Origin: Escherichia coli
Lineage (GTDB): Bacteria; Pseudomonadota; Gammaproteobacteria; Enterobacterales; Enterobacteriaceae
Direction: 5' to 3' (one strand)
Assembly: GCF_003790525.1 (NCBI RefSeq)
Contig: NZ_CP033632.1
DNA length: 64,000 bases
Made by a program: the position numbers. Each line of letters begins with the position of its first letter. Position 1 is the stretch's first letter. Positions 35,501 through 41,500 of the stretch are shown one piece after another.

Positions 35501-38500
35501 TTGCCCAGCCCTTCGACCGATGCGCTGAAGAAATTGTTACCCCACTTTTATCGTCAGACCGGCATTAAGGTTAATCTTGCGGTTTATCCGTATGATGAAG
35601 TTTTTGAAATTCTCTCTCATCTTCACTTGCACCCTTATTACGATTTACTGCGAATCGATATGGCGTGTTTTCCCTGGTTTGCAGAAAAAACATTATTACC
35701 GCTGGAATCGGTCTCCCCTGAGCTCCCGTTATTGCTGGATAACTTCTCTGAGCAACTTCAACAGTACTTCAGCCTGGTGAATGGGACTGCATGGGCAATT
35801 CCCTTTGATGCCAGTATGCAGCTTCTGTTTTATCGACGAGATCTGTTTGAAGATGCAACGATTAAACGGATGTTTTATGAATCCACAGGAAAAGAGTTAA
35901 CTCTACCAGAGAATTTCGCACAATTTGATGAGATTGCTACTTTCTTTAGTCAACGGCATCAGCCAAAAAATAAACAGCGTCCAATGGGAACTGCGGTAAC
36001 GTTGGGCAGTTCAGGACTTATTGCCACTGAGTACTTGCTGCGTTACTACGCGTTAGGTGGGCGATTGGTGCGTGAAGGCGAGCCGATACAACTTGATACT
36101 TCGCTTGCTGCCGTTGCACTCGAAGAATATCTACAACAGTTGCCTGTTGCCGTGAATATTGCCGGTGAGTGGTGGAACGATGCTGTTAAACAGTTTGAGT
36201 GTGGAAATCTCGCCATGCTGATTATGTATCTCAATTTGTTTAACGATGTTGCGCATACGACCATCGCTCCCACGATCGGCTATGCTCCCGTTCCAGGGCA
36301 GCTTCCACAATTGGGTGGTGGTTCTATTGGAATGTCTCGCTACAGTAAGAAGAAAAAACAGGTTGAGCAGTTTTTTCATTGGCTTTATTCCGATGAAATT
36401 TCGCGTCATCTGGTTCTGTTGGGGGGCAACAGCGCTTGGTCTGGAATATGTCACGATCAAAACGTTCTCAATCTCTACCCGTGGTTTAATTTACTGAATG
36501 AAAAAGGCATGAAGGGAATACGTGAGTCTCAGGGAAGTCAAGGTGAGCCTTTTAACCTGCGTCAGGCAGAGATTATCATTGGGCAAGGGGTGACGAATGC
36601 GATTAACGGCATTATGAACGTCAATCAGGCTGTGGAATATATCAATGCACGGATCAGAAACGAAACGGGGGCCTGAAAATGTGACACCTCGAGCCTGTCC
36701 ATCATTCGGTGTAAATGTCTTTCTCAGAAGTGACCGTCAGGGCGGTCACCGAATTCGATAATAAAGCGACTCATTACTATCCGCCAGTCCTGAAGTGGCA
36801 TCGTCCATTTCTGTGAGGCTGACTGGATAGCCAGCCACACCACTTTTTTCACCGATTCATCTGTCGGGAACACTTTCCGTTTCTTTATCGCATGTCTGAT
36901 GACGCTATTCAGCGATTCGATTGCGTTAGTGGTGTAGATAACCTTGCGGATCGCCTCCGGGTACACAAAGACGGTGGCAACATTCGGCCAGTTTGCCCGC
37001 CAGCTGCGACTTATCTGCGGGTACCGTGCATCCCATTCCTTCCCGAACGCATCCAGCGCCTGCAACGCGCCTTCTTCCGTGGCTGCGCGGTAAACCTGTT
37101 TCAGATCACGGGTTACCGCTTTATAGTCTTTCCACGCCACGAATCGCAGGCTGTTGCGTACCATATGTACTATGCACAACTGGAGCTGCGTCTCCGGGGA
37201 GACGGCATTAATCGCTTCCGGGAAGCCTTTCAGGCCGTCCACGCAGGCGATAAGGATATCGTTCAGGCTGCGATTTTTCAGTTCCGTCAGTACATTCAGC
37301 CAGAACTTTGCACCTTCATTTTCGGCCAGCCACATACCCAGCAACTCTTTCTGACCATCAAGGTTAATACCCAGAGCCAGGAACACCGCTTTGTTGATAA
37401 CCCGGCTGTCCTGCCGTACTTTCAGGACAATACAGTCAAGATAAACAATGGGATAAATCGCATCCAGAGGACAGTTTTGCTATTCAACAACCTAGTCGAT
37501 TACGGCATCGGTTACTTTCGATATCAGCGCCGGAGAGACGTCTGCATCGTACATTTCTTTGAAGACTGAGGTAATTTCGCGGGTAGTCATCCCTCTGGCA
37601 TACAGTGCCAGGATCTGGTTGTCCATGCCGGTAATGCGGGTCTGATTTTTCTTCACCAGTTGTGGTTCGAAGGAACCATCATGATCACGTGGAGTACGTA
37701 ATTCCATCGGCCCGTCGGTAGTGGTGACGGTTTTCGTGGAATTGAATCGCCACGGATAATTTAGACACTTCCGAGCCGTTGATAATACTGGTTTTCATAT
37801 TCTGTAGGTGACATCTGATCGCTGGAACCATGCCGACGCTTACTGTTATAAAACATTTCGATGTAATCAAAAATATCGCTGCGGGCTTCTTCCCGCGTTC
37901 CGTAGATCTTTTTCTTTATCCGTTCGCGTTTCAACAACTGGAAAAAGCTTTCTGCAACCGCATTATCATGGCAGTTACCGCGACGGCTCATGCTGCCCTC
38001 CAGGCCGTGTGATTTCAGGAACGACTGCCATTCATTGACTGCCCTGATCCGAATGAACCAGCACCTGTTTTTGGGGATTACGCCGCCATACAGCCATCAG
38101 CAGTGCGTTCAGGACAATGTCCTTTGTCATCCGGGATTGCATGGACCAGCCGATAATTTTGCGTGAGAACAGATCAACAACCACGGCAAGATACAGCCAG
38201 CCTTCGTGGGTCCTGATGTAGGTTATGTCCGTTACCCAACGCTTATCCGGAGCATCCGGATTGAACTGTCGCTGAAGCCTGTTGGGCGACACGATACTGG
38301 CCTCGCCTTTACGAGCCCGCGGGCTCCGGTATCCGACCTGAGCCTTTATCCCGATACGTTTCATCAGTCGCCAGACTCTGTTCACTCCGTACTGTTGCCC
38401 GCTGTCCCGCAGATCTAAATGGATTTTGCGATAACCATAGACGCATCCCGATTCCAGCCAGAACTGTTTAATCTGTCCTGTCAGTCTCAGGTCTGCCTGA

Positions 38501-41500
38501 TGGCGTTGTGAATGCGGCTGCTGAAGCCAGGCGTATAAACCACTGGGATGAACATCCAGCACCCGACAGAGCAGGCGAACAGGCCAGCAACAGGTGTTGC
38601 CCAATATACTCAACATGAACTAGATCTGGTTGCTGCTCAGCTAAACAACAGACCGAGAAAGACACTGAAGTTCAAAACACCGAAAGAGATAATTGAAAGG
38701 GGTGTTGCATTGACAGATTGAATCTACAACGGCTTTTTTTAATATGTCCCGTTCGTCGGTAACCCGCTTCAGCTCTTTCTGGAGACGGCGGATCTCGGCC
38801 TGAGCATCTGACTGTTCTTTATTAGTGGAAGAATCCGGACCGTACTTCTTTATCCAGGAGTAAAGGCTGTGGGTGGTGATATCGAGACGTGTTGCAACGC
38901 TGGCAACAGAATAACCGCGATCAACAACCTGTTTGACTGCTTCAATTTTAAACTCTTCGGGATAACGCTTACCACTCATGGGCACCTCTCTTTAAGTCAT
39001 CTTAAATGACTCTGAGGTGTCTATTAAACCTGTGGCGATTCAGTGGGAAGCCTCGCCCGACAGGGCGGGGAGCAGTCACTATGGATTTTCTTTGGCGCGG
39101 TCTGGCCATTAGGGGTCATGTTTGCTGCAACGTTTCTTCTGATGTGGATATTCACCCTTCCAGGTGATTTCTATAGAAAAAAAGCCAGACATTGATACAA
39201 TCGCTGCGGGTGCTTGAGGCTATCTGCTTCAGGCATTACCCGAAAAGCAGATAGAAGAAAGCCCCAGATAACATTACGCGTCCTGCAAGACGCTTAACAT
39301 TAATCTGAGGCAATATCTATGCTTAGCATACGTAGATTAGCCTCTTACCGACCAAAAGGTCAAGGAGAAGCAGGCTATGAAGCAGCAAAAAGCGATATTA
39401 ATCGCTCTGATCGTCATCTGTTTAACCGTCATTGTGACGGCACTGGTAACGAGGAAAGACCTCTGCGAGGTACAAATCCGAACCGGCCAGACGGAGGTCA
39501 CTGTCTTCACAGCCTACGAATCTGAAAGGTAAGAGACCTGGCGGGGAGAGATCCCATAAGCGCTAACTTAAGGGTTGAACCATCTGAAGAATGCGACACC
39601 TCGGTGCCTCGTTAAGACGATGCCTCGCGTTCTTCAATTGCGTTTTGTAGGCTGTCAGGGATACTGTCCCACGAATGGCCACCTGTAAGCTCCAGATGAC
39701 CATTTTTGTTATTCTCCACAACGAGTTAGTTCTTCTTTTCGGATCCGGCACTTCTGGGGGGGAAATCCAGCGATGGCTGGATTATGTCGTCAATTAAAAA
39801 TGCGGCGAGTAGATTAGCAAATATCCACGCTTTCGCGAGTTCAGGTTCCTTTGCACGCAAAGCATCCAGGTGCAGCAAACTTTTGAGCCGCTTAAAAGCC
39901 AGTTCAATTTGCCATCGCAGACGGTAACAATCAGCCACTTGCTCTGCTGAATATTCATCTTCCGGTAATGATGTTAGCAATAGCACATGGCCCGCTGCTT
40001 CCAGCGTTTCCGCCTGAACTACTCGTCCTTTTCGACGATTCTCGCTGAGCAGTCGGGTTTTACTGATTAATGCTTTTTCGGGAGGAAGTGATACGGCAAT
40101 GAGACGTGCCGGAAAGGGAGCTCCGGCTTTTTTATTACCTGAATTGCCTATCATTACAGTGGTTTCACCGTTCTTACCGCAATCCAGCCCGCGCAGAAAA
40201 CCCATCATGTCAAAGCGCATTCCTTCTGCAGTTAACCAGCGCAATCCTCGCCAGTGAACCCGGACGATATAATCAGCTTCTCCAAAAGCAAGTGAGCGGA
40301 TACATTCGGGACGCGAACCGAATCCCCGGTCAGCAATGCGTATCTCGTCTGCCGTTTGCGCAAATCGGTCCAGCCGTTCAGCGTCTCTGCTGTCGGTTAG
40401 CTCAAAATCAGTGAACTGACAGGTATGAGGATCATATCCCATATGTAGTCGCCATTCAGCGCTGCCGCCCCCGGGCGCACTGATTGCTGTTCCATCGACA
40501 AGACGCAATCTCTTTCCGCTTGTACAACCCGTAACTGCGGCGCGTACAGCAAGTGTTTGTGCGGCAAGTATGCCAAACCAGTCGGCGGCATTCCGCAACC
40601 GCTTCAGGAGAGCCACGTCAGATAATGTTGCAACGTCATGGAGCTGAGCCCATGCAGTGACTTCACGTAATGACATCCCCCCGGGGCCGTAAGCCAGCCC
40701 CAGACGTAGCAGAGTTGCAGCATCACGAATTTCGCGGCGGCGGGTTAGAGCCCCGGCATTACATGCCGAAGTATCCAGTTCTTCGGGCTTACCAATATGG
40801 GCCAGAATTGCTGACCAGTTATCGTGAGAGTAATTCATCGGCACGTTAAATCATATCAGGCGTAATACCACAACCCTTAAGTTAGCGCTTATGGGAGAGA
40901 TCCCCGCCACTCTTCGTGTGTCAGGTATCCTCAATGCACCCTTTCCTCTCCAAATAAAAAAGCTCCCGAAGGAGCTTTAAAATACAAGGGATGACTCTTA
41001 ATCCCACTCAATCCAGTTGTAGACGATACGAAGTGACGGGCGCACAGCGGCAGTCACATCTTCGGTACTAAAGTCGATTGCATCACTGTAGATTTTGCAG
41101 TCCAACATTTCAATTGTTGTAGCAGCTTTTGTCACAGCGTTAACCCCGGAAGATTTGGATTCAGGGGTAGCAGCCATCGTGATATCAACATAGTCCTTCG
41201 CCGCAATGCGATCCTTAATGAACTGAAGAATATCGCCTTCGATAGTCTCCACGCACTGGACCTGGATTTCCCCAGAGTTTCGAATTGGTCCGTGCTGGTT
41301 GAACTTCACACCATTCGGACCATAGTCCTCCACATTCTCTCGAGTCATTTCAGGGATTTGCGACGTGCGAACCAGTACGCTGATATCTTCATGGCCTGCA
41401 AAAGTGAGCTGGAATTCAGAAGATACCAGTCGTTCGCCTTTGGCCGCGTTGGCAGTATAGCGGCCCTTAATAAATTTACGGTTTCCCTTAGTGTTATTGT

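Follow-up and report, generated by a model that had tools for sequence, protein, structure and literature searches.

ISEhe3 of Pantoea agglomerans (pPATH) is an IS3-family insertion sequence of the IS51 group that has TG ends and generates a target duplication of 3-4 bp (PMC10425158), and a 24.5-kb deletion has been associated with an ISEhe3 insertion (PMC6872532). In Escherichia coli K-12 MG1655, the CP4-6 prophage remnant contains, at 279,163-280,425, a chain formed by IS1B, IS30B (the insI2 pseudogene) and 'ISX' (insX, b4505), and in a second K-12 combination, IS911A/IS30A (insN/insI1), IS30 has inserted within an IS3-family element, a few bases 3' of its slippery A-run. Two further elements offer points of comparison: IS1414 of E. 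coli, which belongs to the IS256 family and encodes a single transposase of 402 amino acids, and ISEc46, an IS200/IS605-family element with tnpA and tnpB genes. A target duplication of 8-9 bp is a feature of the IS256 family.

When the window, i.e. the whole stretch of 64,000 nucleotides of E. coli contig NZ_CP033632.1 that was analysed, was compared with these systems, the region 36691-39079 was found to consist of the remnants of four insertion sequences, rather than of the two recognized in a preliminary description, which had overlooked an IS30 remnant (38600-38728) and an IS200/IS605-family right end. We consider with a probability of about 0.9 that this E. coli plasmid locus is a layered insertion-sequence graveyard, in which truncated elements are chained to one another and an IS3-family copy bridges them. 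Curated HMMs gave the IS256 and IS3 family assignments, the pieces of IS30 and IS605 were recognized from their DNA identity to annotated copies, and comparison with intact or near-intact copies placed each boundary and lesion to the base. The names 'ISEhe3-like' and 'IS1414-related' come from a UniRef label, PGAP labels and percentages of identity, not from an ISfinder comparison. The features of the locus are as follows:

36691-37742, minus strand: IS256-family remnant, IS1414-related, 1052 of about 1313 bp.
37480-37482, minus strand: second in-frame TAG of the IS256-family transposase (TGG, Trp, in the chromosomal copy L004; T instead of C at window position 37481).
37492-37494, minus strand: first in-frame TAG of the same frame (CAG, Gln, in L004; A instead of G at window position 37494).
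37743-39042, minus strand: ISEhe3-like IS3-family element (K-12 'ISX'/insX), defined by matches to NF033516 and by alignment to positions 1501-2729 of the intact copy L005.
37743-37780, no strand assigned: IS3-family terminal inverted repeat on the orfB side, 38 nt, 74% complementary to 39005-39042.
38035-38036, minus strand: site of an 11-bp orfB deletion; L005 1794-1804, GGCTTGTGTAC (plus strand), is absent from the window.
38600-38728, plus strand: 3' remnant of IS30, comprising its final 129 bp (C-terminal end of the transposase and right inverted repeat), identified by DNA identity.
38729-38730, no strand assigned: 'AC', the one copy left of the 2-bp target duplication of IS30 (L003 reads CGCCAC, IS30, ACTGC).
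38734-38742, minus strand: retained A-run for programmed -1 frameshifting in the IS3-family element, A AAA AAA G; the sequence downstream in the reading direction is deleted.
39005-39042, no strand assigned: IS3-family terminal inverted repeat on the orfA side, pairing with 37743-37780.
39043-39079, plus strand: ISEc46-like IS200/IS605-family right end, the terminal 37 bp, identified by identity to post-tnpB sequence.
39080-39532, plus strand: hok/sok-type toxin-antitoxin locus (Rfam RF01794, 114 bits), context outside the nest.

The IS256-family transposase remnant had already been noted, with a start one base off; it lies on the minus strand, and its assignment was confirmed by matches of NCBIfam NF033543 to a 220-aa piece (E = 1.8e-69) and a 71-aa piece (E = 8.8e-20). 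Homologues of the single Mutator-type DDE transposase carry PF00872, and the gene is here broken and N-terminally truncated. The closest copies (96-97%) are E. coli chromosomal pseudogenes annotated as 'IS256 family' and bearing no IS name; a chromosomal copy, L004 (1501-2552), aligned ungapped with 97.2% identity, and the comparison revealed exactly the two in-frame TAG stops of the preliminary description, across which the translation reads ...AVID(stop)VVE(stop)QN.... The remnant resembles IS1414 in family, length class and single transposase, with 81% nucleotide identity to IS1414 copies and amino-acid identities of 84% to proteins labelled IS1414 and of 95% to the best intact protein, but it is too divergent to be IS1414 and differs from it in being truncated and in having two nonsense codons. 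The retained part extends from transposase codon 64 to the stop codon (36724-36726) and includes the stop-end (3') inverted repeat at 36691 (GAGCCTGT...); the 5' 261 bp, which comprise the other inverted repeat, the promoter and the first 63 codons, are gone. Because only one inverted repeat is present, the copy is a remnant and not a complete member of the family; lacking its second end and its start, and interrupted by two nonsense codons, it is dead even in trans. The element lies 14 bp past the stop codon of a gene encoding a 724-aa regulator/solute-binding fusion.

The IS3-family copy, whose start had been given as 37742, measures 1300 bp and derives from an element of 1229 bp. It has 5'-TG...CA-3' ends (TGAATCGCC...GGCGATTCA) and imperfect inverted repeats of 38 nt, both of them intact (TGAATCGCCAC...GTGGCGATTCA), and NF033516 matched its orfA and both pieces of its orfB. 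The arrangement is that of the IS3 family, in which OrfA, with a helix-turn-helix, overlaps OrfB (DDE/rve) in the -1 frame and an A-run serves as frameshift site; the intact reference element encodes a 92-aa OrfA and a 270-aa OrfB, with a PGAP note of 'programmed frameshift'. An identical OrfA carries the label 'ISEhe3 transposase A', which is also the UniRef label of OrfA from the intact E. coli copy L005, and L005-type copies fit the ISfinder description of ISEhe3 reported in PMC10425158 (TG...CA, 1229 bp, two ORFs, A-run and 3-bp duplication). The likeness to ISEhe3 is one of UniRef label and description, and the form 'ISEhe3-like' is used here because the plain name ISEhe3 calls for DNA identity of 95% or more to the reference of ISfinder (AF327445).

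In comparison with ISEhe3, the window copy is crippled by the 11-bp deletion and the IS30 stub, and it has no duplication. Seen against the intact 1229-bp copy, the 11-bp deletion takes out the codons for Y-T-S-H and puts the sequence after HSDQGSQ, from (N)EWQSF on, into another frame; an orfB frameshift had indeed been noted at this place. The A-run is kept and the orfA/orfB overlap is deleted. Because the sequence after the A-run is missing, OrfA runs on into IS30 as a chimeric ORF of 112 aa (38641-38985), which is found in exactly this form in public collections as 'putative transposase YkgN'; this ORF and that at 39002-39195 are junction artefacts. The derivative cannot make transposase and keeps both inverted repeats, and in principle it could be mobilised by an intact copy elsewhere in the cell.

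Within the IS3-family element, window positions 38590-38728 align with IS30 positions 1083-1221 at 98.6% identity. Only the stub, with the transposase C-terminus, the right inverted repeat and a single AC, is present here (annotated by PGAP as 'IS30 family transposase' in the relative L002), and a full-length IS30 flanked by AC on both sides occupies the same IS3-family site in L003. A TTG microhomology (38597-38599) marks the join between the stub and IS3-family sequence, where the deletion amounts to about 1.14 kb (1091 bp of IS30 and 48 bp of the orfA/orfB overlap). The sequence shows directly that IS30 had inserted into the IS3-family element immediately 3' of the frameshift A-run, with the same junction as the K-12 IS30B/ISX remnant, and that most of IS30 and the overlap were afterwards lost through deletion at the 3-bp microhomology; the 11 bp of orfB are a further loss.

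The K-12 ISX shares with the window the IS3-family element and its junction with IS30 (K-12 279,931-280,425), and the alignment of window 38590-39042 with K-12 279,973-280,425 is unbroken, reaches 96.7% identity and stops exactly at the element terminus. In both cases IS30 is reduced to a 3' stub. In K-12, however, the stub measures 181 bp, is cut by IS1B and is accompanied by the loss of the orfB half of the IS3-family element, whereas in the window the 129-bp stub is rejoined to the orfB half through an internal deletion; the dinucleotide adjacent to IS30 is GC in K-12 and AC in the window. The K-12 IS911A::IS30A pair was also considered as the same composite and was rejected, IS30 alone being in common: its host element is another one, the DNA homology is limited to IS30, IS30 lies in the opposite relative orientation, and the targets read ATATTAAAAAAGGCT-AC-CGCG in IS911A and ATATTAAAAAAAGCA-GT-GGCG in the window element. 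In K-12 IS911A, in K-12 ISX and in the plasmid copy described here, IS30 is located just 3' of the A-run of an IS3-family element, and both orientations occur.

At the other flank of the IS3-family element, the stretch 39043-39079 matches the DNA directly after tnpB at every position in L008 and L011 (37/37) and at all but one in L009 (36/37). At these three unrelated loci the homologous segment starts 3 nt past the annotated tnpB stop codon, and the L011 element is annotated as ISEc46. As compared with ISEc46, the window has right-end sequence of the kind found directly 3' of tnpB and retains the extreme right end only; tnpA (Y1 transposase), tnpB and the left end with its hairpin are gone, nothing upstream of 39043 derives from the IS605 element, and the IS3-family terminus directly abuts. 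Downstream lies the hok/sok locus, with its upstream flank from 39080, the sok/hok leader at 39208-39382 and hok at 39377-39532, whose product is named Hok/Gef or HokD by PGAP; an Rfam search over 36000-41000 gave nothing beyond the sok/hok leader. The same upstream flank exists without the IS605 end in pfosA3 (L010). An ISEc46-like element formerly adjoined the upstream side of hok/sok, and its last 37 bp are what survives.

The preliminary description had proposed that the IS3-family element is inserted in an otherwise complete IS256-family transposase gene that resumes at 39043-39110. The junction at 37742/37743 between the IS3 end and IS256 is clean, as such an insertion would predict, and a 10-nt resemblance, attributable to chance, exists between the sequence at the IS256 break in L004 (GTGGAATAGCC) and the right flank in the window (GTGGGAAGCC). 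Nevertheless, the missing 261 bp or 63 codons had no match at 39043-39400 or window-wide (blastn with words of 7 and 11, and tblastn, at E values up to 100), the DNA at 39043-39079 is that of the IS200/IS605 right end at three loci, no target duplication is present, and PGAP describes the IS256 pseudogene as 'missing N-terminus'. Simple nested insertion is therefore the wrong picture and, as an account of the whole locus, very improbable, since only the 37742/37743 junction involves IS256 and the other flank is an IS200/IS605-family right end. Even less credible is a mis-join of repeats during assembly: although repeats are a classic source of mis-assembly, at least 32 complete (closed) E. coli plasmids from several continents and hosts, sequenced independently of one another, carry the 2,651-bp nest at 99.6-100% identity, and it is also present in 30 PLSDB plasmids. 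Furthermore, relatives differ from it through clean extra insertions bearing their own target duplications. Turnover has gone on among the relatives: L002 has an IS1A insertion at 38502-38510, CP098980.1 an inserted 1.31-kb element at 39081-39084, and pTB211 an annotated group II intron sequence following position 38221, with shuffled flanks.

Somewhat less improbable, but still improbable, is a reading in which the 1.3-kb IS3-family derivative and its IS30 stub form a non-autonomous element that remains mobile and reached its present site as one unit, mobilised in trans by intact copies, the truncations of its neighbours being separate events. In agreement with this, the 38-nt inverted repeats are both intact, intact copies are common in E. 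coli (e.g. 13 orfA-end matches in strain HS), and the IS30-carrying composite is found in several distinct chromosomal contexts, in one of which (L025/L026) it is flanked by a perfect 4-bp duplication, TTGC; the latter would reflect either trans-mobilisation of the crippled composite or arrival of IS30 after the element had inserted there. In contrast, the window copy has no target duplication, no intact copy lies within the window, and the deletion derivative with both junctions (at least 80% coverage) occurs in one place each in 78 genomes, the single row inspected being this plasmid lineage.

The flanks of the IS3-family copy in the window are AAT and GTG, so that, as previously noted, there is no target duplication. 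Of the intact copies elsewhere, 6/11 show a 3-bp duplication, namely L005 (GCG) and five of ten further copies; the other five have none, three of them coming from one multi-copy genome, which indicates that exchange of flanks among copies is common. The different flanks suggest that at least one of the IS3-family junctions in the window is secondary, and the absent duplication is accordingly read as a probable secondary loss. Most likely, homologous recombination took place between two IS3-family copies, one in the IS256-family element and the other 3 bp past the IS605 tnpB stop codon, with deletion of the intervening DNA; an IS-adjacent deletion would be the alternative. No ancestral state was found in 5,426 complete E. 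coli genomes. When the flank with the solute-binding gene plus a complete IS256-family element was used as query against all complete E. coli genomes, the best matches all ended at the IS3 junction and none had an intact IS256-family element at this locus, and the reciprocal junctions (IS3 end with the missing IS256 part, and tnpB 3' end with IS3 end) gave no contiguous match; for this reason, the two-copy recombination is an event that we infer. A shared target motif or common origin with the chromosomal copy L018, which has the same 4+4 flank bases (GAAT/GTGG) in the opposite orientation, was rejected because the window flanks are native IS256 and IS605 sequences and the motif is absent from ten further intact copies. 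The arrangement in pTB211 was likewise rejected as ancestral, since its full IS3-family copy is also without a duplication (GTC vs GTG) and is thus another recombinant, not the ancestor.

Taken together, none of the four remnants is capable of self-transposition, the IS30 and IS605 pieces being inert ends. The view of the locus as decayed, probably inactive and an old rearrangement scar is upheld by the truncation, the stops, the frameshift and the conservation of the structure in the plasmids mentioned above. The feature is an ordinary and already known one, and its main parts are already pseudogenes in the PGAP annotation, which labels them at these coordinates 'IS256 family transposase: internal stop; incomplete' and 'IS3 family transposase: frameshifted'. 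A preference of IS30 for sites a few bases 3' of IS3-family slippery A-runs appears unlikely; if it were a true site preference, and not coincidence and inheritance, one insertion sequence would systematically disable the frameshift-dependent transposase of another family. Other than as neutral filler and as a substrate for homologous recombination, for which several portable repeats are present here, the region has no function. Its biological weight is small, that of neutral debris marking the joins between cargo modules on a widespread E. coli plasmid lineage. Its practical value lies in annotation, with four insertion sequence remnants to be recorded and not two, and the IS605 end (37 bp) and the IS30 stub (129 bp) are usable as lineage markers for tracing the plasmid family.

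The preliminary description of this stretch, in which an inactive IS3-family element lies inside an IS256-family transposase gene whose frame resumes on the far side, largely held up, except that the IS256 frame does not resume and that two further elements, IS30 and IS605, had been missed. The main features of the nest and its surroundings are as follows.

36691-37742, minus strand, IS256-family remnant (NF033543 matches and alignment to L004, a chromosomal reference copy)
37743-39042, minus strand, IS3-family element, ISEhe3-like (NF033516 matches and alignment to L005, an intact reference copy)
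39208-39382, sok/hok leader (Rfam, 114 bits)
39377-39532, hok
7935-8756, 17688-18458, 22525-23726, 26130-26900, about 29176-30338 and 30527-31297, IS26, three IS1 copies, ISKpn26 and a true IS3 (by colinearity with plasmid pS163-2.4)

The curated IS256 model NF033543 was matched by two ORF pieces of the IS256-family remnant (E = 1.8e-69 and 8.8e-20), and the nearest DNA was L004, an unnamed chromosomal copy beside yafV that is frameshifted as well (97.2% identity over 1052 bp, no gaps). Identity to IS1414 is 81% at the DNA level and about 84% at the protein level, and the best intact public protein shows 95% identity to the remnant transposase. In L004 the full-length element spans 1501-2813 (1313 bp) with inverted repeats GAGCCTGT... 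at both ends, whereas the window copy begins at its inverted repeat (36691), 14 bp past the stop codon of a 724-aa fusion gene, and breaks off sharply at 37742. The two in-frame TAG stops described previously were recovered at 37492-37494 and 37480-37482, where the translation reads ...AVID(stop)VVE(stop)QN... against ...AVIDQVVEWQN... in L004. Both E. coli chromosomal copies of this lineage that were examined, L004 and a second one, L012, are frameshifted pseudogenes, and intact proteins at 90-95% identity are present elsewhere; within E. coli the lineage may have mostly died out. Elsewhere in the window, a 32-bp match to the terminal inverted repeat (18463-18494, 87.5%, E = 4e-5) directly adjoins the IS1 copy at 17688-18458 and may be a second, almost wholly erased IS256-family copy.

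Past the breakpoint, the L004 element continues for 261 bp (63 codons, the promoter and the other inverted repeat), for which blastn and tblastn (E up to 100) gave no match at 39043-39400 or in the whole 64 kb. When 39043-39376 was used as the query, the segment fell into two parts. The 37 bp starting 3 nt past the tnpB stop codon at two unrelated loci recur without a mismatch at 39043-39079, and a third locus differs from this stretch at 1 of 37 positions; one of the three loci is annotated as ISEc46, an IS200/IS605 element. At 39080 the upstream flank of hok/sok takes over, which plasmid pfosA3 carries without the IS605 end. The proposed resumption of the IS256 frame is therefore wrong, because the far side consists of an IS605 end and the hok/sok flank and the continuation is absent; the ORF beginning at 39109 is a junction artefact. 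A 50-aa ORF on the plus strand (MGSLARQGGEQSLWIFFGAVWPLGVMF..., 39043-39195) starts within the IS605 end and runs on into the hok flank; it was probably created by the junction or left over as a remnant, and PGAP labels the corresponding pfosA3 stretch as a truncated 'membrane domain protein'. Behind hok, an intact IS4-family IS421 with IS186-like ends (CATAAGCGCTAACTTAAGGG...) occupies 39553-40895. As it starts about 20 bp past the hok stop codon, it should deprive the hok mRNA of its 3' fold-back part. This arrangement, also carried by pfosA3, resembles that of the K-12 chromosomal hok loci, where insertions of IS186 or IS150 immediately outside the frame are reported to have abolished activity.

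The IS3-family element, whose OrfA and two OrfB pieces matched NF033516, is bounded by imperfect inverted repeats of 38 nt (TGAATCGCC...GGCGATTCA). UniRef labels the OrfA of the intact copy 'ISEhe3 transposase A', and ISEhe3 belongs to the IS51 group of the IS3 family, with TG ends and a 3-4 bp duplication (PMC10425158). The K-12 counterpart is the remnant ISX (insX, b4505), and in further public records this remnant of orfA goes by the name 'putative transposase YkgN'. The element was compared base by base with intact L005, which is 1229 bp long and bears the PGAP remark 'programmed frameshift'. After 38035, 11 bp (GGCTTGTGTAC) are missing from the window copy, a loss in orfB that turns ...HSDQGSQYTSHEWQSF... 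into a frameshift and accounts for the orfB lesion noted earlier. Moreover, L005 2369-2416 (48 bp, the overlap of the orfA end and the orfB start) is replaced by foreign sequence.

Judged by alignment, the foreign sequence is IS30, with 98.6% identity between 38590-38728 and IS30 1083-1221. The chromosomal ISEhe3-like copy L003 contains a complete IS30 at exactly the same site (...CGCCAC/IS30/ACTGC..., 2-bp duplication), and the window retains the right-hand IS30/host junction (...CTACA/AC/GGCTTTTTTT). The loss comes to about 1.14 kb, of which IS30 accounts for 1091 bp and the host element for 48 bp, and the new joint is at a TTG microhomology, 38597-38599. Since K-12 279,973-280,425 (IS30B stub and ISX) aligns without a break to 38590-39042 at 96.7%, the junction is old and well known. 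OrfA reading through the IS30 inverted repeat forms a 112-aa chimeric ORF, which is present wherever a full IS30 occupies this site, in several chromosomal contexts. In two IS3-family elements that are not related to each other, K-12 IS911A (NC_000913.3 270,541-271,761) and the ISEhe3-like element (window 38729-38745 and L003), IS30 lies within a few bases of the slippery A-run on its 3' side, in opposite orientations and with similar target sequences; this position may be an IS30 hot spot.

The view of the region as an inactive old scar was right: the IS256-family piece, which lacks a start, carries two stops and has a single end left, is dead even in trans; IS30 and IS605 are each represented by one end; and the IS3-family derivative encodes no transposase and retains both ends. 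Mobilisation of this derivative in trans is conceivable, though unsupported for this copy.

As described before, no target duplication flanks the IS3-family copy (AAT vs GTG). A 3-bp duplication was found in L005 (GCG) and in five of ten further intact 1229-bp copies from E. coli chromosomes (L028-L037; TAA, GTA, TCT, TAC and TTT), and the IS30-carrying composite is flanked by TTGC/.../TTGC in one context. The other five copies have none, three of them residing in a single genome with at least four copies, a pattern suggesting that inversions or deletions often arise between copies. The element thus normally yields a 3-4 bp duplication, and its loss via exchange between copies is common. Because the bridging copy is flanked on its left by native IS256-family sequence and on its right by native sequence of IS605, one or both of its junctions must be secondary. 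We favour recombination between two IS3-family copies, one in each of these older elements, which would have left the bridging copy, over the alternative of an IS-adjacent deletion. An ISEhe3 insertion linked with a 24.5-kb deletion has been reported (PMC6872532). Neither ancestral nor reciprocal junctions were found among 5,426 complete E. coli genomes.

At least 32 complete E. coli plasmids (about 80-170 kb) from poultry, humans, vegetables, wastewater and pangolin are 99.6-100% identical over 2.65 kb around the nest, and 30 plasmids in PLSDB also match it. The two plasmids typed with MOB-suite, pS163-2.4 and CP098980.1, have an IncHI1B-like replicon, and pS163-2.4 is colinear with window 25580-52028. 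Other insertion sequences crowd the window. In a 724-aa ORF on the plus strand (34502-36676, 'extracellular solute-binding protein' in PGAP), a LacI-type helix-turn-helix/periplasmic-binding regulator makes up the N-terminal part and is joined to an extracellular solute-binding domain; the ORF neighbours genes for an MBL-fold hydrolase, an MFS transporter and MgtC/SapB (about 31350-34200), in a module with IS1 at its left edge and the nest at its right.

There is nothing unusual about the nest, which RefSeq already annotates and which is partly identical to a long-known K-12 remnant. At its coordinates in pS163-2.4, PGAP lists an 'IS256 family transposase (internal stop; incomplete; missing N-terminus)' and an 'IS3 family transposase (frameshifted)', and in one relative an 'IS30 family transposase' fragment as well. 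In one relative IS1A lies at 38502-38510; the two aligned segments share 9 bp there, which fits a 9-bp duplication. In CP098980.1 an element of 1.31 kb, labelled 'IS3 family transposase', lies at 39081-39084. In plasmid pTB211 the IS3-family copy beside the IS256-family remnant stops after 38221 and gives way to sequence annotated as a group II intron, while a second, full copy with other flanks adjoins hok. New insertions and recombination are tolerated in the nest.
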